Assembly: GCA_044229975.1 (NCBI GenBank)
Contig: JBGARZ010000008.1
Location: forward strand, 256,001-320,000
Length of the DNA: 64,000 nt
Direction of reading: 5' to 3'
Source: Polyangiales bacterium
GTDB taxonomy: Bacteria; Myxococcota_A; Polyangia; Polyangiales; Ga0077539
Shown: piece after piece, positions 51,526-64,000 of the stretch
Numbering within the stretch: the first letter of the stretch is position 1
Layout: each line of letters opens with the position of its first letter
Position numbers and translations under genes: made by a program
Notes under the pieces: generated by a model
Database searches by the model: none
What the model was told of the DNA's origin: nothing
Seen by the model: only the letters and a program-made list of their open reading frames with translations

Positions 51526-51612
51526 TCATCGAGCCACCGCGCGGGCGAGCGTCGACTTGCCCGAGCCGGAGGATCCGACCACCACCACGCGCGACAACAC
51601 CGACCGGCTCAC
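51526..51612 (-). pseudogene. Truncated P-loop kinase (adenylate kinase/topology-modulation-like) remnant
   Basis: VSRSVLSRVVVVGSSGSGKSTLARAVAR-stop; the GTG overlaps the upstream stop codon. Confidence 0.6.
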
Positions 51613-53828
51613 ATCCCGAGGCGCACGTCCTCGGTCAGGCCCACGGGGCCGACCGGGGCGGCACCGAGCGCGACGGACGTTCCGCCCGCGCCGCCCGCCG
51701 CGGGCGTGGTCGAGCGAGCGTAGCGGGGCATGTTCAACGTCGGCGCCGTGCCCACGTAGAGAACGCACACCGACGGGCCGCCCGCCCCGCCCGCCCCGCT
51801 GCCACCCGGACCGCCGCGACCGCCGATGGCGCCGTTGCCGCCGTTGCCCGAGTTCGAAGCGCCCATGCCGCCGCCACCGCCGCTGCCCGGAGCACCTGCG
51901 CCGCCGCCGTTGCCACCGCGACCGCCCACGCCGCCGGCGCCCGCCGTGAGGCTGCCGCCGTCGATGGTGACCATCGCGCCGACGCTCAGCACCGCGAAGC
52001 TCCCGCCGCCACCACCACCACCGCCACCCGCCGTCCCACCGCAGCCGCCTGCCCCGCCGCCGCCACCACCACCGCTACCGGTGCCGCAGCACATCAAGGT
52101 GCCGCAGGGGATCGAACCGCCACCACCGCTGCCGCCGCCGCCGCCGCCGCCGCCCGCGCGCCCGGGCGTGCCCACGCCACCACCCGGCGGAACATAGAGC
52201 CCCGTATCCGTCGCGAACGAGCCGACGTTGCTACCGGCGGTTCCGTTGGCGCCGTTGCCACCCGGGCTGCCAGCCGCCGCCGCACTCGCAGGCGCCGCGC
52301 TACCACCGTTGGTCACGACGCCCGCCACGCAGAGTCCCGCGCCGCCGCCGCCGCCCGCTGCGCCGCCCGCACCGCCGCCCGTCACCATCATCCCGGCGTT
52401 GCCCGACACGCCCGCGGCCTGGCCGAAGCGACCCGCTCCGCCTCCGCCTCCCGCACCCGCGCACGCCGAGGTACCCGCGGTGCCCGCCGCGCCGTTGGAC
52501 GACGTCGCCACGCCGCCCATCCCCCCGTTAGCCCCCGTCGCGCCCATCACGCCATCGGTGCCCGCCACGCCGACGGCGCCCGCGCCCGCGGTGATGGTGC
52601 ACGCCTGCAACGTCAGCCGACTGCTCCCGCCGCGCGCCCTCACGCCGTAGCTGCTCTCGCCCGGCGTCGTCGCCGCCGCCGACACGATGGTCAGCCGTTG
52701 CAGCACCGTCGCCCCCGCGAGCTCGTTCGCCACCACCGCCGTCGTCCCACCCTGGATCGTCGTCACGTTGCCCGCAGCGCGCGTCCAGTCCGACCCGTTG
52801 TAGCCGCCGTAGAGGCTCACCCCGGACGCGAGCGTGATCGTCTCCGCGTACGTGCCCGCAGCGATGTACACCGCGAAGCCCACACCCGCCGCCTGCGCCG
52901 CCGTGATGGCCGCCGCGATGGTGCGCTTGGGCTCTGCGCGCGTCCCAGGTGCCGCGTCGTTGCCGCCCTCCCGCACGAAGATCGCCCGCGCCGCGATGCC
53001 GTCGACACCGTCGCAGTTGGTGTCCATCCCGGTGAGGTCGGGCTCGTCGGGGTTGGTCCGGCAATCCACCATGCACGCGCCCGCGGTGCACACCATCCCG
53101 GCGCTGCAAGCCCGCCCGCACATGCCGCAGTTGCGCGCGTCGGTCTGGTAGTCGGGACCCTCGTGACCGCAGATGCGGGCGCCCGCGTCGCCGACGCCGC
53201 CGTCACCCGCCGCGCTCGCGGTGCAGCGGTCGACGGTGCACGGGTCCATGTCGTCGCAGTCGAAGGCGGGCGCTCGCTCGCACTGGTTGCGCGTCGTGTT
53301 GCAGCGCCAGGCGCCCGTGCAGATGTCGCCGCCCATGCTCGCGCACGCGCTGTCGTCGGACGCCGAACACTGCACCGGCGCCACGCAGCCGCCCGTGCAG
53401 GCGCCGCCGCCCGACGGGCAGTCGACCACGCACATCTGCCCGCCCGTGCACATCGAGCTGGTCGCCACGTGATCACAGCCGCCGCGGGTCGTGTTGCAGG
53501 TGTCCACCGTGCACTCGATGCCGTCGTCGCAGTTCGCGCGGGCGTGCGTCTCCTCGCAGAAGCCCATCCGGCAGACCTGTGCGTTGATGCAGAAGTCCGA
53601 CGCCGTGCACTGGTCGTCGCGATCACAGCGCCGCCGCGGAACGTCCGCCGGCACGTCGCCCTGCACGTCGACCGCACCCACGTCGGCGGGGCGATCGACG
53701 GCGGTGTCACCGAGGTCGGTGCGCGGGCCGGTGTCCGCCGGACCGCCGTCGGCGTTGCCGTCGATGCGCGCCCAGGGGACGCAACCCACCGCGAGACAGA
53801 GTGCCACCACCGACAGACGTGCAGACAT
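51609..53828 (-). CDS. Cys-rich/Gly-rich surface lipoprotein with DUF1565-like beta-helix
   Basis: Lipobox AVGC, CDDGxxCTVD repeats, DxNCDGVDG, GNDAAPGT..PKRTI, poly-Gly C-terminus. Confidence 0.82.
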   Translation of the reverse strand: MSARLSVVALCLAVGCVPWARIDGNADGGPADTGPRTDLGDTAVDRPADVGAVDVQGDVPADVPRRRCDRDDQCTASDFCINAQVCRMGFCEETHARANCDDGIECTVDTCNTTRGGCDHVATSSMCTGGQMCVVDCPSGGGACTGGCVAPVQCSASDDSACASMGGDICTGAWRCNTTRNQCERAPAFDCDDMDPCTVDRCTASAAGDGGVGDAGARICGHEGPDYQTDARNCGMCGRACSAGMVCTAGACMVDCRTNPDEPDLTGMDTNCDGVDGIAARAIFVREGGNDAAPGTRAEPKRTIAAAITAAQAAGVGFAVYIAAGTYAETITLASGVSLYGGYNGSDWTRAAGNVTTIQGGTTAVVANELAGATVLQRLTIVSAAATTPGESSYGVRARGGSSRLTLQACTITAGAGAVGVAGTDGVMGATGANGGMGGVATSSNGAAGTAGTSACAGAGGGGGAGRFGQAAGVSGNAGMMVTGGGAGGAAGGGGGAGLCVAGVVTNGGSAAPASAAAAGSPGGNGANGTAGSNVGSFATDTGLYVPPGGGVGTPGRAGGGGGGGGSGGGGSIPCGTLMCCGTGSGGGGGGGAGGCGGTAGGGGGGGGGSFAVLSVGAMVTIDGGSLTAGAGGVGGRGGNGGGAGAPGSGGGGGMGASNSGNGGNGAIGGRGGPGGSGAGGAGGPSVCVLYVGTAPTLNMPRYARSTTPAAGGAGGTSVALGAAPVGPVGLTEDVRLGM

Positions 53829-53969
53829 CGTCGCAGACCATAGCGCCATTGCCCGCGCGCGGAACCCTCCGATCAACAGCGTCGTGCGCTGCGTTCACGC
53901 CCCTACACCGAGGCGCGAGGTCCTCGTTGCGTCGTGCGACCGTCCCGCGGCAGCATCGCCGCGCACCCG

Positions 53970-55982: not shown

Positions 55983-58211
55983 CTAGGGCGCGGTAATGGT
56001 GAGGTCGTAGGCCGGGTTGTACATGGTGCCGTTGTACTGGCAGTCCACGAACACGTAGTAGGTCGTTCCCGCGGTGACGGTGAGGGAGACGTTTTCGGTG
56101 GGCCACGAGCCTGCCTGCGAGTCGCACGCGACCTGACTGCCGGTGTCGCAGGAGGTCTGGCGGACGTAGAGCGTCGCGGGCCAGAAGTCGCCCGTCAGAC
56201 GCACCGTCGCGGTGCCAGAGCGTGATGGTGTCCAACGCCAGATGCGCTCGACGCCGCGGCTGTTGGAGCTCGCCCCGCAGGTGGCCGAGTGGGTGCCGGC
56301 GCCGTTCATGTTGCCGGTGAAGCGCCCGCCCGCGGGGGCCGCGACGTACGGCAGCCCGCAGGTTCCGTTGCCGCAGCCCTCGTCGACCGCGCCGTCGCAG
56401 TCGTCGTCCATGTTGTTGCACGCCTCGGCGGCAACGTTGGCGACGCAGCTCCCGTTGCCGCAGCGGTTGTACCCGGCGCTGCACTGGAGCCCGCACGTGC
56501 CCGCCGAGCAGGTCGCGGTCGCGCTGCCACCACTCGGGCAGACGTTGCCGCAGCGCCCGCAGTTGGTGGTCGACGAGAGGGCCGTCTCGCAGCCGTTGCT
56601 CGCGGCGCTGTCGCAGTCGCCGAAGCCGTCCGCGCAGCGCGATCCGCACGCGCCCGCCGTGCAGGTGGCCGTCGCATTGGAGCCGGCGGTGCAAGCGTTT
56701 CCGCAGCGCCCGCAGTGGCTCACCGAACCGCGGGTGTCGACCTCGCAGCCATCCGACGCGACGCCATTGCAGTCGGCGAACCCGGCCGCGCAGGTGAACG
56801 CGCAGACGCCCGCGGCGCACGAAGCCGCGGTCGCGTTGGCGGGCACCGGGCACGCCGACGCGGCGCCGTAGCCGAGCCCATCGGAGCGGCAGGTCTCGAC
56901 CGACGAGGCGCCCGAGCAGCGGCGCGCGCCGGGCGAACAGATCCAGCCGGAGCACATGCCGCCGGTGCACGAGGAGCCCACCGCGCACGCGACCGGAGAG
57001 CTGCCACTGCCGTCGGCGGCGCAGACGTTCATGGTCGCGAGGTCGCGGCAGGTCGAGCTCCCAGGCGTGCACGCCCACGCGCGGCAGGCGCCATCACGGC
57101 ACGACTGCCCGCTCTCGCAGGGGCGCGTCGTGTAGCCCTGACCGTCGGCCGAGCACACACGCGAGGCCGTGCCCGAGGCGCACTCCACGGCGCCGGGAGT
57201 GCACGTCCACGGAACACACGCGCCCATGACGCACCCCGCCCGCTCGCCACAGGAGACGTTGGTGGTCGCGAGGCCGTCGGCGCCGCAGACCCGGCGCACC
57301 CTGGCGTCGACGCAGGTCGACGCGCCGGGCGAGCACACACGCGTCACGCAGGCGCCATCGCGGCACGAGCGATCGGCGGGACACGCGGTGGTGGTGGAGC
57401 CGAGGCCGTCGTCGTTGCACACGGCCACGCCCGTCGCTCCCTCGCAGCGCATCGCGCCGGGGGTGCAGGTGCGCGACACGCAGCGACCGGCGGAGCACGA
57501 CTCGCTGGCGCCGCAGGTCTGCTCGACCCACGCGCTGCCGCGGGCGTCGCAGCGGCGAGCGCGGCGGGCGTCGAGGCACTCGATGGCGGCGGGCGTACAC
57601 ACGCGCGGTCGGCAGATGGCGCCCGCGGTGCAGTAGAGCCCGTCGGCGCAGTCGACGTCGGAGGCGCACTCGACGCACTGCCCGCGGGCGGTGTCGCAGA
57701 CCAGCATCAGGTCGCTGCACTCGCGCGACGAGCGGCAGGTGCGCGGCGGAGGGACGCAGGCGTTGGAGCGGCAGACGGTTCCGTCGGCGCAGTCGGGGTC
57801 GGCGTTGCAGTCGACGCAGAAGCCGCGGGTCGGGTCGCAGACCTGGCCGGGGCACATGCGCGACGTGGTGCAGGTGACGGCGGGGACGCAGCGGCTCCCC
57901 CTGCACGAGCGCCCGCTGCCGCCACAGTCGTCGGGCGAGACGCACTCGACGCAGCGCCCGCGAACGCGGTCGCACACGTTGCCCGCCGCGCGACAGGGCG
58001 TGTCGTCGACACAGGTCGTGGTGCCGATGTCACCGATGGAGGGGACGTCGGAGAGCTCACGATCGAGCGCGGGAGTCGCGTCGCTGGCGACGTCAACGGA
58101 TGCGTCGACCGGAGGCACGTCGGACCCGGAGCTCGGCGGGAGAACCACCGCGGGTGTGCACGCTGCGAGCAGGACGAAGAGGAGGGCGAGGCGGGTGGAC
58201 GGGGCCGACAT
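55983..58211 (-). CDS. Large Cys-rich repeat lipoprotein (myxobacterial adhesin-like; MopE-type repeat, PPC-like C-terminus)
   Basis: Lipobox LAAC; CTPG...C..DG repeats; DC.....NGCE; EACNNMDDDCDGAVDEG. Confidence 0.85.
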   Translation of the reverse strand: MSAPSTRLALLFVLLAACTPAVVLPPSSGSDVPPVDASVDVASDATPALDRELSDVPSIGDIGTTTCVDDTPCRAAGNVCDRVRGRCVECVSPDDCGGSGRSCRGSRCVPAVTCTTSRMCPGQVCDPTRGFCVDCNADPDCADGTVCRSNACVPPPRTCRSSRECSDLMLVCDTARGQCVECASDVDCADGLYCTAGAICRPRVCTPAAIECLDARRARRCDARGSAWVEQTCGASESCSAGRCVSRTCTPGAMRCEGATGVAVCNDDGLGSTTTACPADRSCRDGACVTRVCSPGASTCVDARVRRVCGADGLATTNVSCGERAGCVMGACVPWTCTPGAVECASGTASRVCSADGQGYTTRPCESGQSCRDGACRAWACTPGSSTCRDLATMNVCAADGSGSSPVACAVGSSCTGGMCSGWICSPGARRCSGASSVETCRSDGLGYGAASACPVPANATAASCAAGVCAFTCAAGFADCNGVASDGCEVDTRGSVSHCGRCGNACTAGSNATATCTAGACGSRCADGFGDCDSAASNGCETALSSTTNCGRCGNVCPSGGSATATCSAGTCGLQCSAGYNRCGNGSCVANVAAEACNNMDDDCDGAVDEGCGNGTCGLPYVAAPAGGRFTGNMNGAGTHSATCGASSNSRGVERIWRWTPSRSGTATVRLTGDFWPATLYVRQTSCDTGSQVACDSQAGSWPTENVSLTVTAGTTYYVFVDCQYNGTMYNPAYDLTITAP

Positions 58212-58395
58212 GGCGCCGGAGTACAACAGCGCGGGGGGCGTGTCTCTTGGCGCCCGGGTGGGCGTCACGTCTCCTTGCAACGCGGGCGGGTCGACCGGCA
58301 CCCCAAAGGTCACAGAGCACCAACGATCGAAAATGGCCTTCAAGCATCAATTGTCTTTACGGACATCCGTGTCTGGAGTACACAGGTCCATCGTC

Positions 58396-58431
58396 ATGTC
58401 TGCCTGTCTTCACCATCCGCATCGTTATTGA
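58396..58431 (+). other. Possible leader peptide MSACLHHPHRY ending TAT-TGA-C
   Basis: CAGGT 8 nt upstream; codons unusual for this GC-rich genome; followed by hairpin tcgggc-tcgcg-gcccga and then the tRNA. Confidence 0.3.
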
Positions 58432-58472
58432 CCGCCTCGGGCTCGCGGCCCGATCTGGCATCGTCAATCAAC

Positions 58473-58557
58473 GCGGATGTGACCTGAGCGGCAATAGGAC
58501 CGGGCTGTAAACCCGGCGGCCACAAGCCTTCGTGGGTTCGAGTCCCACCATCCCGCA
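58473..58557 (+). tRNA. Atypical tRNA-Tyr (anticodon GTA) with long variable arm and bulged acceptor stem
   Basis: Anticodon arm CCGGG-CTGTAAA-CCCGG; T arm GTGGG-TTCGAGT-CCCAC; variable arm GGC-CACAA-GCC; acceptor GCGGATG/CATCC(C)GC; discriminator A; followed by CCG rather than CCA. Confidence 0.85.
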
Positions 58558-58630
58558 CCGCCCGGCGCTGGCGCCCTTCGTGGGAGTTGGCGGACCGGTT
58601 GTTCAATGGAGAAAGAGAGGGTTTTGCGTC

Positions 58631-59309
58631 ATGGGAGTCATCATCGAGGTTCGCGCGGCGGAGGGCGGGGCGGACGCCCGTTCATTGGTGTCAGAGCAGG
58701 TTGCCGTGTATGTGAAGAGGGCGCAGCGAAAGTGTCTTTGACGTCGAGATCACCGACAGCCGGGAAGGGCGCATCGTCCTCCTGGTGACCGGGGAGTGGG
58801 CGCACGATGCGTTCAAGCACGAGGCGGGCGGGCATCGGTGGCAGCGGGTTCCGCCGGGCGACAAGCGGGGTCGGGTGCAGACGAGCACGGTGACGGTGGC
58901 GGTGCTGTCGGAGCCGACGGCGACGCAGCTCACCATCGCGCCGGGCGACCTCCAGTGGGCCTTCAGCCGAGGCAGCGGCGCGGGCGGACAGAACCGCAAC
59001 AAGACGGATTCCGCCGTCGACCTCACGCACCGGCCGACGGGCGTGGTGGTGCACTGCGAGAGCGAGCGTTCGCAGCAGCAGAACAAGGCCAACGCGCTGG
59101 CGATGCTACGGGCGCGATTGTGGGAGGCGCGCGTCGAGGCCGACCACCAGGCCCGCAGCGCGGCGCGACGCGAGCAGCTCGGAAGCGGCGAGCGCGGCGA
59201 CAAACGATGGACGGTGCGAACGCAGGACGACGTCGTGACGCACCAGGTGTCGGGGCAGAAGTTCAGGCTGCGGGACTACCTCGAAGGGGACTACGAGGTG
59301 GCGAGGTAA
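58631..59309 (+). CDS. Minimal class-1 peptide chain release factor homologue, ~225 aa, needing a +1 frameshift at CTT-TGA-C (58736-58742)
   Basis: Frame 0: MGVIIEVRAAEGGADAR...KCL-stop. +1 frame from 58740 continues without stops: DVEITDS...EAGGHRWQRVPPGDKRGRVQTS...GSGAGGQNRNKTDSAV...ERSQQQNK...GSGERGDKRWT. Confidence 0.9.
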
Positions 59310-59323
59310 GGGGGCGATCGAGC

Positions 59324-59464
59324 CGACCTCCCCCCGCTGCCGCGCGCCCCTCTCCCTGGCAGGAGAGGGGCTGATCTCACCTGACAATTCGAGGTCGAAC
59401 GCGTGCGTCGACAGAGCCCCTCTCCTGCCAGGGAGAGGGGCGCGCGGCAGCGGGGGTGAGGTCG
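59324..59464. repeat. ~50-bp inverted repeat pair containing CCCCTCTCC...GGAGAGGGG palindromes (REP-like; possible terminator)
   Basis: 59324-59372 matches the reverse complement of 59415-59464 with one indel. Confidence 0.88.
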
Positions 59465-62468: not shown

Positions 62469-62673
62469 TCTGCCACTGGGCGTGCCGCCGAGCATCGGAT
62501 GGTGGCAGTCCCCGGGGCTTACGCCGCCGCGTCAGCGCGGCGCGCGACCACGACCCCTCCGGTCCGGACGGACGAACACAGGAGACGTGATCGCTCGCGC
62601 GCCGCGCTGACGCTGCGGCGTAAGCCCCGGGGACTGCCACCTCCCGATGCTCGGCAGCACGCCCGGTGGCAGA
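62469..62673. repeat. ~79-bp imperfect inverted repeat (62469-62547 / 62595-62673) with CCCCGGGGCTTACGCC core
   Basis: Arms are reverse complements with a few mismatches. Confidence 0.88.
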
Positions 62674-63131
62674 TCCAGAGGCAGACCCAACGCCGAACTC
62701 CATGTGCGAAGAAAAATCACAAGTCACTTGACCGACGCAGCGATGGTCGATTAAGGTCGCCACCGCTCACGCAACCTTCCCATATGCGTCAGGTGCAACC
62801 ACACCGGCACGGAAGGTCAAAAACCAGAAGACACAACACAGTGCGGGTGGAGGGTGGAGTCATCCTGACGGCCTCATAAGCCGTAGAATGCCGTGCGACT
62901 CGGCAACTCCGCGACCGAGGTGGAGCCATGGGTCAGCCGTTGGGTACGGTTGATCAAGCCCACACGTCCGTCTTTCGACATCTCATCCATGTTGGATGAG
63001 ATGTCGTTCGGATTTTGATCCGACAACCCATGACGAGTCCCTTCGCGGGACCTCTCGTCGACTGCGGCCTGTTTCCCGATCACCAATTCATCCATTGCAG
63101 CCGCCGTTCGATTCCGGGCAACATTGCGCGG

Positions 63132-64000
63132 ATGTCGCCGCCCCACGTCCCGTTGCACCTCCGCGCGCAGGCCCACGCCGCGCGCGCCCTGTTGAAGCTC
63201 CCGCCCGCCACGCTGGTACGGCTGTCCGGGGGAAAGCGCATCGAGCGCCACGGGTGCGTCCTCGATGCGCAGTTCCAGTTCATGCTCTCGCTCGCCGAGC
63301 GACTCGGCCGCGGAACGCCCGACCTCACCGGTCCCCTCGCCGATCGCCGCACCGCGATGGACCTCGACAGCCTCGTCTTCGCCCCCGCGCCCGTCCACCT
63401 GGAGAGCGCCCGCGACGAGCGCGTGGCCGACCGCTTCACCGTCCGCATCTACCGCCCGCACGGCCTCGGCAGCACGGCCCCCGCGGTGGTGTATCTCCAC
63501 GGCGGCGGCTTCGTGCTCGGCGGCCTCGCGTCGCACGACCCCATCTGCCGCGCGCTCGCCTACGAGACCCGCTGCGTGGTGATCGCCGTCGACTACCGCC
63601 TCGCCCCCGAGCACCCCTACCCCGCCGCCGCCGACGACGCGACCGCGGCCTTCCGCTGGGTCATCGCCGAGGCCCACCGCCTGGGCATCGACCCGAAGCG
63701 CGTGGCCGTGGCGGGCGACAGCGCGGGCGGCAACCTCTCGGCCGTGGTGGCCAACGACACCCGCGACGACGAGCACCCGCCGTGCTTCCAGGCGCTGGTG
63801 TACCCGGCCGTCGACCAGACGATGACCTTCCCCTCGCTGCGCTTGATGGAGAAGGGCTTCCTGCTGGAGCGCGCGACCATCCTCTGGTTTCGAGCGCAGT
63901 ACTGCCCCGACCCGGCCATGTGGCTCACCCCGCGGGCGTCGCCGTGGTTCGCCGACGTGAAGGGCGTGGCGCCCGCGCTGGTGCAGACGGCCGGCTTCGA
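63132..64000 (+). CDS. HSL-family alpha/beta hydrolase (Aes-like esterase), 3'-partial
   Basis: Read manually from ATG 63132: YLHGGGF, DYRLAPEHPYP, GDSAGG, YP. Confidence 0.92.
   Translation, partial: MSPPHVPLHLRAQAHAARALLKLPPATLVRLSGGKRIERHGCVLDAQFQFMLSLAERLGRGTPDLTGPLADRRTAMDLDSLVFAPAPVHLESARDERVADRFTVRIYRPHGLGSTAPAVVYLHGGGFVLGGLASHDPICRALAYETRCVVIAVDYRLAPEHPYPAAADDATAAFRWVIAEAHRLGIDPKRVAVAGDSAGGNLSAVVANDTRDDEHPPCFQALVYPAVDQTMTFPSLRLMEKGFLLERATILWFRAQYCPDPAMWLTPRASPWFADVKGVAPALVQTAGF

Follow-up and report, generated by a model that had tools for sequence, protein, structure and literature searches.

Classical attenuators include those of trp, his, the multivalent ilv and thr, and pheST. 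Leader-peptide attenuation is a ribosome-mediated form of control, as defined in the available part of PMC1183508. A unit that may be controlled in a related way is located in a 64,000-nucleotide (nt) stretch of a Polyangiales bacterium (assembly GCA_044229975.1, contig JBGARZ010000008.1, positions 256,001 to 320,000, forward strand), and this whole stretch is termed the window. The unit is made up of a promoter-like site, a predicted leader open reading frame (ORF), an accessory tRNA-Tyr gene, and a gene for a short, frameshifted, RF1-like release factor.

Other described systems resemble parts of this unit. The available text of PMC12421855 reports TAG in 0 of 8164 prfB frameshift motifs and no programmed frameshift in prfA. 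RF1, RF2, ArfB, and PrfH are the only factors listed in the accessible part of PMC6514570. L-arrays are a divergent second set of tRNAs that is linked to HNH genes and has a proposed role under translational stress (PMC8421152, main text). In that main text, control is assigned to promoter repeats, and the terms "leader", "attenuat", and "release factor" appear nowhere. The part of PMC7824862 available holds nothing bearing on this system. In the full-text literature, with subscription papers mostly outside the scope, no paper was found on leaders controlling tRNA genes or on a short RF1-like clade. This negative covers main texts, and the supplements of PMC8421152, PMC6514570, and PMC7162821 could list the factor.

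The window unit is read, with a probability of about 60%, as a supply of one spare tRNA and one spare release factor that is gated by the leader and checked again at the frameshift site. Its parts are co-oriented on the + strand in the order promoter-like site, leader ORF, hairpin, tRNA-Tyr(GTA), 73-nt spacer, and release-factor gene, and a palindrome follows. A preliminary description of the locus had proposed a self-contained translation-stress module. The pairing of a spare tRNA with a spare release factor stands: the order of promoter, leader, tRNA(s), and factor recurs in four genomic copies, and the factor is also found in large tRNA arrays. The term "self-contained" was too narrow, as the genome has nine units of this kind, the window unit among them. 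Gating by the putative leader is well supported as a sequence pattern.

The pattern is seen in the leaders of accessory tRNA clusters throughout the genome. Leaders were picked by a rule made up of a promoter-like pattern and the next ATG, and codon content was ignored in the pick. Over 48 tRNA clusters, the rule gave ORFs at 13, including all nine accessory clusters. These nine carry Tyr; Tyr/His; Glu/Glu/Arg/Asp; Glu/Arg/Asp; three Leu; Asn/Lys/Arg; two Gly; four Ser with a Cys-like gene seen by eye; and Trp/Phe/Gln/Gln. Housekeeping tRNA promoters, where found, lie 7-29 nt from the tRNA with no intervening leader.

Across seven independent cluster types, codons for the tRNAs of a cluster are demonstrably enriched in its predicted leader. 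The true matching of leaders to clusters ranks first of 5040 permutations, with a cognate leader codon for 21 of 22 tRNAs (permutation mean 9.7). When all 13 rule-picked ORFs are used, the score is reached in 5 of 100000 permutations. The four ORFs outside the accessory set show no enrichment. Taken singly, leaders have enrichment p values from 8e-9 (Ser) to 0.33 (Leu). A Ser/Cys-rich leader again precedes the Cys/Ser cluster of the congener G004.

Leaders picked by eye ahead of the large arrays of G043, G137, and G009 cover 16/16, 34/35, and 11/12 anticodons, which exceeds chance weakly (39-712 of 5000). The G137 array (L219) is headed by a 75-codon ORF containing all 20 amino acids, followed by a clear intrinsic terminator. 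The leader pattern had 15 matches in viral contigs and 2 outside the genus in 401 genomes, and a tRNA was present at 0 of these 17.

Other features of the leaders were seen in passing. In arrays L267 (G043), L268 (G044), and L265 (G009), the leader is followed by a terminator-like hairpin that is shared with the Cys/Ser units of G000 and G004 (L215, L272). At L216 (G000:C16:42026-42700, + strand), a 105-codon leader runs in frame through a tRNA-Trp-like gene. A Trp codon stands directly before this gene, and a Gln-rich stretch and a Phe codon stand before tRNA-Phe, tRNA-Gln, and tRNA-Gln.

In the window itself, the promoter-like site that had been proposed is found, and its TTTAC-N17-TA pattern is invariant across four sister modules. 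A generic sigma-70 scan called 0 sites, this one included. Housekeeping tRNA promoters of the genome often have a -10 element that starts with TA and is missing the final T (TACACC, TACATC), and the predicted window promoter resembles them.

The short upstream ORF is likewise present. With three His codons, one Tyr codon, and a stop, it is predicted to serve as a ribosome sensor. The leader end HHPHRY-stop is found in four genomic copies, where the core varies solely by CAT/CAC swaps and the stop; the first leader codons differ in amino acid among the four. Leaders on public contigs also differ synonymously in the HHPHRY core, among the differences listed. Rare U-ending codons account for 9/12 His and 4/4 Tyr codons in the four leaders, compared with about 9% genome-wide. 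In the paralogue, whose cargo is tRNA-Tyr and tRNA-His, 4 of 10 leader codons are cognate (0.37 expected, p = 0.0003). Against tRNA-Tyr alone, the window leader gives p = 0.16, with its Tyr codon and stop as the remaining matches to the cargo. In three copies, TGA serves as both the leader stop and the frameshift stop; in the paralogue on C4, both are TAG.

The frameshifted minimal release factor was also borne out. It spans 58631-59309, with CTT TGA C at 58736-58742, and would have 225 residues after a +1 shift. An assembly error as the source of the frameshift was rejected because independent contigs (X1, X4, X2, X5) cross the site with zero indels. Comparison across the family suggests that the site is programmed. 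The viral census drew on the best 80 of 310 confirmed viral loci; 3 were without the anchor motif and 7 were duplicates, leaving 70. The bacterial census had 20 loci with one duplicate, leaving 19. CTT plus a stop in the right frame is present in 60/70 viral loci (47 TGA, 10 TAG, 3 TAA) and in 19/19 bacterial loci (18 TGA, 1 TAG). Among the 79 distinct sites, CTT is found in 79, C after the stop in 63, and TAG as the stop in 11. A CGGAGG Shine-Dalgarno (SD)-like element precedes 42 of the 79, the window has CGAAAG, and two relatives have CGGAAG. The host prfB site, GGGAGG-CAT-CTT-TGA-C, is at codon 23 in domain 1. The factor site is at codon 36 in domain 2 (about RF1 residue 144), which points to an independent origin. 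In two viral loci (L122, L129), the frame is broken by a stop without a CTT site, suggesting other gates, e.g., read-through.

Short ORFs ending in Phe-x-stop or Phe-stop occur upstream of the factor in 7 of 16 other bacterial copies and in 6 of 69 viral copies. Six of these were folded, and a GC hairpin was found behind each. Such ORFs are candidate termination sensors. In other genera, Phe-Pro/Thr-stop ORFs are located upstream of the factor at L186, L194, L200-L203, and L205, and by eye at L195; in most cases, a GC hairpin comes right after the ORF.

The proposed mechanism joins the leader to the tRNA. In normal translation, the ribosome would clear the leader, and the leader 3' half would form a stem with the spacer and the tRNA 5' acceptor strand. 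With this stem in place, the tRNA would not be matured, or the transcript would be ended or degraded. Stalling at the last His, Arg, Tyr, or stop codon would leave the ribosome covering the 5' arm of the stem. The cloverleaf could then form, and the downstream message would survive. Slow termination at the internal stop would be required for full-length factor to be made; this would repeat the check on the stop codon that the leader uses and is analogous to prfB. Control through tRNA misfolding or processing is favored slightly over Rho-type termination, which appears nearly as likely.

Predicted folds are suggestive of such a switch and of an anti-tRNA helix. In the free RNA, a long stem is predicted from the His-Pro-His codons to the tRNA 5' acceptor strand, and this strand pairs upstream with a probability of 0.75-1.00 in four copies. 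When the RNA is masked to the last His, self-pairing of the acceptor stem is predicted at 0.91, 1.00, 0.79, and 0.18, so that it is restored in three of four. The leader segment complementary to the acceptor strand is paired in 27 of 28 cells over the four copies, with one U-A/C-G swap. The housekeeping tRNA-Tyr is captured far less by the leader (0.29). In the hairpin behind the leader stop, the inner 7 pairs are invariant and no covariation is seen. An intrinsic U-tract terminator is missing from the + strand after the window leader; in the Cys/Ser unit and in large arrays, the leaders do have terminator-like hairpins behind them.

A wider proposal is tentative. The nine units may form a spare decoding kit under per-codon feedback, in which the stop is one more codon and its reader is a third, near-omnipotent class-I release factor. 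The Tyr/His leader would mimic the 3' acceptor strand and keep the precursor misfolded until a stalled ribosome frees the tRNA.

Several points weigh against leader gating. The promoter pattern was composed after the leaders had been viewed, and three of the nine leaders are unenriched singly (the Tyr-only leader of the window, Leu, and C16 at 0.27). Large-array leaders go weakly beyond chance (39-800 of 5000), and 9 of 16 other bacterial copies have no Phe-ending leader by script. The shared change of leader stop and frameshift stop is a single event. His codons are kept in His-less copies of several strains; as they outlast the tRNA-His, RNA structure may constrain these codons more than sensing does. 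Folding adds further doubts. Once masking reaches beyond the stop, a good cloverleaf prediction is left in just one of four copies (0.06, 0.99, 0.16, 0.01). The anti-tRNA helix is equaled by 99/500 shuffles, and the tRNA strand is also captured by 80/300 synonymous recodings and 79/300 codon shuffles. No pair of the outer, long stem is changed on both sides, and the other modules show no preference for leader-tRNA pairing. The SD-like element of the window is weaker than the family norm, and together with an extra base in the tRNA, this suggests that the window copy may be decaying.

The factor matches Pfam PCRF and RF-1, and its alignment to E. coli RF1 begins at residue 112; domain 1 is thus missing. 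It is closest to prfA and falls under every curated cut-off, including that of PrfH: RF1 TIGR00019 gives 203 bits (cut-off 423), and PrfH TIGR03072 gives 73.8 bits (cut-off 166.65). Against RF1 structures the E value is 1e-45, and against PrfH it is 1e-9 to 1e-11. The predicted model of a natural homologue, P0012 (predicted local distance difference test score, pLDDT, 89), superimposes on ribosome-bound RF1 with a template modeling (TM) score of 0.90. GGQ is invariant in 69/69 family rows, and Gln71, the RF1-type Gln before the recognition loop, is invariant in the family. RF1-type HRxQRxP and R-V-H/Q-T-S strands and the RF1 C-terminal part are retained. The recognition motif is P-P-G in the window and P-P-S in the paralogue, both deviating from PxT, and mainly P-P-N/T in the family; in 69 rows, the threonine position is Asn in 30, Thr in 28, Gly in 3, and Ser in 3.

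A quick tree of 65 rows, rooted at the midpoint and with PrfH rows left out, places 40 family rows on one side of a long branch outside the RF1 clade (Shimodaira-Hasegawa-like approximate likelihood ratio test, SH-aLRT, 98). Bacterial and viral rows are interleaved. By its sequence, the factor is a separate clade, distinct from PrfH. Its probable role is peptide release at stop codons, with relaxed specificity and no RF3 contact.

The locus had also been likened to RtcB/PrfH and Ro60/Y-RNA loci, and neither likeness held. PrfH membership is rejected by the score of 73.8 against 166.65 bits, the missing SXY recognition motif, the lack of an adjoining rtcB, and the RF1-type strands. A TIGR03072 search over the whole genome gave no match above the cut-off. 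Matches to rtcB are on C32, C10, and C20 only (three genes), and a tRNA, not rtcB, lies upstream of the factor. TROVE genes are at other genomic places, on C2 and at C4:126890, and the spacer has no Rfam match.

It is unlikely, although worth weighing, that regulation is as proposed and the protein is a codon-independent rescue factor like PrfH or ArfB, perhaps acting with one of the three RtcB ligases. Domain 1 is absent, as in PrfH (PMC1586002, available part), the PxT threonine is not kept, and three rtcB genes are present in the genome. Whether the recognition motif varies along with the frameshift stop was considered, and the idea was rejected, as no such link was seen in the family census. 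The far closer match to RF1, the retained RF1-type strands and C-terminal part, and the absence of both SXY and an adjacent rtcB speak against a rescue factor. A gate at a stop codon also fits a factor that replaces termination.

Induction at the promoter is a second alternative and is rated as quite unlikely. The units would be stress-induced like the Anabaena trn operon, and the leaders would be incidental or structural. L-arrays are governed via promoter repeats according to the main text of PMC8421152. AT-rich upstream stretches, judged by eye, are common to the accessory promoters, and His codons outlast the tRNA-His. Incidental leaders would not account for a leader-cluster match that is the best of 5040, for leaderless housekeeping promoters, or for core changes that are synonymous only.

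The atypical tRNA-Tyr(GTA) was confirmed by an ARAGORN call and by an Rfam score of 37.6 bits (cut-off 29); the paralogue scores 49.8 and the housekeeping copy 54.9 bits. A 3-nt linker follows the acceptor strand. The 3' acceptor strand has one additional C in this assembly (58552-58554). The divergent public contigs X2, X5, and X16 lack one base at 58552/58554, which marks the extra C as peculiar to this assembly. The G004 tRNA-Tyr likewise has an extra base at an acceptor position.

The paralogue on C4 is 89% identical over the gene and is preceded by tRNA-Tyr and tRNA-His. Aligned to it, the window has a deletion of ~135 nt that covers the entire tRNA-His, which is kept in three sister modules. 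The His-less layout is also found in the public-run contigs X2, X5, and X16 (~90% identity) and in X4, which matches 58559-58709 with zero differences. A tRNA-5'-half-like remnant had been suggested at 58558-58630. No Rfam match was found there at E <= 1, and the best matches to the paralogue tRNA-His span 8 and 7 nt in the wrong order. These results and the tRNA-His deletion led to the rejection of a tRNA half or Y-RNA. Judged from the alignment, the segment is a spacer left by loss of tRNA-His and is no tRNA remnant. The conserved motif before the factor start codon (58597-58618) also occurs inside the Ser cluster at G000:C32:449083. It resembles a boxA anti-termination site and may play a boxA-like role; a search with two motifs found no 16S gene.

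The family is found at E <= 1e-47 in 16 of 401 genomes of the order. In a phylum-level scan, 5 of 401 passed, two of them ordinary RF1. A genome-collection scan with an alignment gave 2 family loci among the 80 retained of 577, which were mostly ordinary RF1. A viral scan with a single protein confirmed 0 of 29. A metagenome scan gave 6 loci from 211 stretches, and the three that were placed in the tree cluster with RF2. Large phages commonly carry the short RF1-like clade, which is sporadic in the bacterial order.

Conserved upstream tRNAs had been expected beside the homologues. Only one genus shows a tRNA-Tyr directly upstream, at 4 of the 19 bacterial loci. Two further bacterial loci are in or beside tRNA arrays; upstream of the others, the first 1 kb is free of tRNA genes on the same strand. 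Among 74 distinct viral loci, a tRNA is found within 4 kb at 36 and a tRNA-Tyr at 6. A family-wide tie to tRNA-Tyr was rejected on the bacterial and viral counts. The Tyr-His-release factor unit is present in 2 of 8 congeners (G004, G005), and a DNA search found the Tyr/His unit in 2 of 401 genomes. None of the Asn/Lys/Arg, Leu, and Trp/Phe/Gln units was found whole in the five congeners searched, and no whole Gly unit was found in eight; matches were to single tRNAs or repeats only.

L219 (G137:C1:3446000-3464000) is a 41-tRNA array that contains an HNH-like gene and the factor, which suggests an L-array-like setting as ancestral. The nine-unit set likely arose by the break-up of a phage- or L-array-type tRNA array. 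In G000, a weak tRNA-like gene and two short repeats lie ahead of a TROVE gene (C2:10385-11700, + strand), and at C21:32030-32800 (+ strand), a repeat of a similar kind stands behind an HNH-like gene and tRNA-Thr. Both might derive from the same array break-up. G000:C20:281741-281814 (+ strand) encodes a high-scoring tRNA-Ile whose anticodon, TAT, is uncommon in bacteria.

It is improbable that the locus is a relic left by a phage or array insertion, now decaying and functionless. Such a relic would suit the patchy distribution, the interleaving of bacterial and viral copies, and a window copy that has lost tRNA-His, gained an acceptor base, and carries a weak SD-like element. Decay is opposed by the synonymous excess between paralogues (44 synonymous and 21 non-synonymous codon differences) and by paired changes in the tRNA anticodon stem across copies. 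The release-factor gene is host-like in composition, with a guanine-plus-cytosine (GC) content of 0.69 and 0.91 at third codon positions (GC3). In relatives, the acceptor stem is clean and the SD-like element is better, and ordinary genes are found on both sides of the window unit. The last alternative, that tRNA-Tyr reads UAA/UAG as a near-cognate and competes with the factor, was raised early, as Tyr codons differ from these stops at a single position, and is very improbable given an ordinary GTA anticodon in all four copies, TGA as both leader and frameshift stop in the window, and the lack of a nearby tRNA-Tyr in most family members.

Features of the unit and its 3' flank, in window coordinates
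Feature	Position	Strand	Remarks
Predicted promoter TTTACG-N17-TACACA	58356..58384	+	-35 TTTACG, -10 TACACA, 17-nt spacer
Leader ORF MSACLHHPHRY*	58396..58431	+	11 codons, stop TGA; picked by the promoter-then-first-ATG rule
Predicted anti-tRNA helix	58414..58420	+	Leader segment; 7 nt complementary to the tRNA-Tyr 5' acceptor strand (58473-58479)
GC-rich hairpin just past leader stop	58434..58459	+	Folds; core of the long stem from leader to tRNA 5' end; no U-tract
Accessory tRNA-Tyr(GTA)	58473..58557	+	ARAGORN 58473-58556; discriminator A at 58557
Spacer after tRNA-His deletion	58558..58630	+	Conserved 22-nt motif at 58597-58618; also contains the likely ribosome-binding site
Release-factor ORF1	58631..58741	+	36 codons up to the internal TGA; 8 synonymous and 4 non-synonymous codon differences to paralogue
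Predicted +1 frameshift cassette	58727..58742	+	Weak SD-like CGAAAG, three bases, CTT TGA C
Release-factor ORF2 (+1 frame)	58740..59309	+	Stop TAA; P-P-G at RF1 PxT position; GGQ at residues 118-120
REP-like (repetitive extragenic palindromic) long palindrome	59324..59464	.	Folds at z = -15; generic intergenic element

The surroundings of the unit partly agree with the preliminary description. The AT-richer island is real, with a GC content of 0.59 over 58300-58640 and 0.74 and 0.71 in the flanking genes. The flanking ORFs have lipoprotein-like signal peptides at the N-terminus, judged by eye, and a Pfam search of them gave zero matches. The closing palindrome is present and folds. It lies outside the conserved module and was rejected as part of it, because the paralogue has a different palindrome and pieces of this one are found again elsewhere in the genome. 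Long Cys-rich repeat proteins with lipoprotein-like starts are encoded at 55983-58211 and 51609-53876 of the window (both - strand); the former had no match in a Pfam search. A second intergenic GC dip (0.58-0.64) is observed at 62600-63200.

The host genome encodes its own prfA, prfB, and housekeeping tRNA-Tyr. If the leader-gated reading is true, tRNA supply and termination capacity would be controlled codon by codon via leader translation. This would be a targeted cellular answer to anticodon nucleases, starvation, and drugs that trap release factors.

Compared with leader-peptide attenuation, the unit likewise has a short ORF with cargo-cognate codons between promoter and cargo, and the 3' part of the ORF is predicted to pair with downstream RNA. 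It differs in that the cargo is made up of tRNA genes and a release factor, not enzymes. The stop is apparently a sensed codon, the window copy has no U-tract terminator, and the pairing partner may be the tRNA itself.

PrfH, as described in the available parts of PMC1586002, PMC9304027, and PMC6514570, shares with the factor a class-I fold without domain 1, the GGQ motif, and a sporadic distribution. The factor is set apart by the missing SXY and adjacent rtcB and by a score far under the family cut-off. It has RF1-type recognition strands, the RF1 C-terminal part, and a frameshift gate.

Like L-arrays and the Anabaena trn operon, the accessory clusters are a divergent second tRNA set, and the G137 array combines an HNH gene with the factor. 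Unlike an L-array, this set is dispersed over nine small units, and every unit has a promoter-like site and a leader of its own. One tRNA is present in the window unit, and 1-4 are called per unit. The translation genes of huge phages also include release factors and tRNA sets (PMC7162821). The short clade, the frameshift, and the leaders are not described in the available part of that article.

The predicted frameshift site is built like that of prfB, with CTT, a stop, and mostly C; three bases upstream there is an SD-like element, as CGGAGG at 42 of 79 sites and in a weaker form in the window. It differs in belonging to an RF1-like gene, in its codon and domain, and in the use of TAG at 11/79 sites. 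These TAG-gated predicted frameshifts would contradict, with a case from nature, the published view in which only RF2 is autoregulated in this way and TAG is never used.

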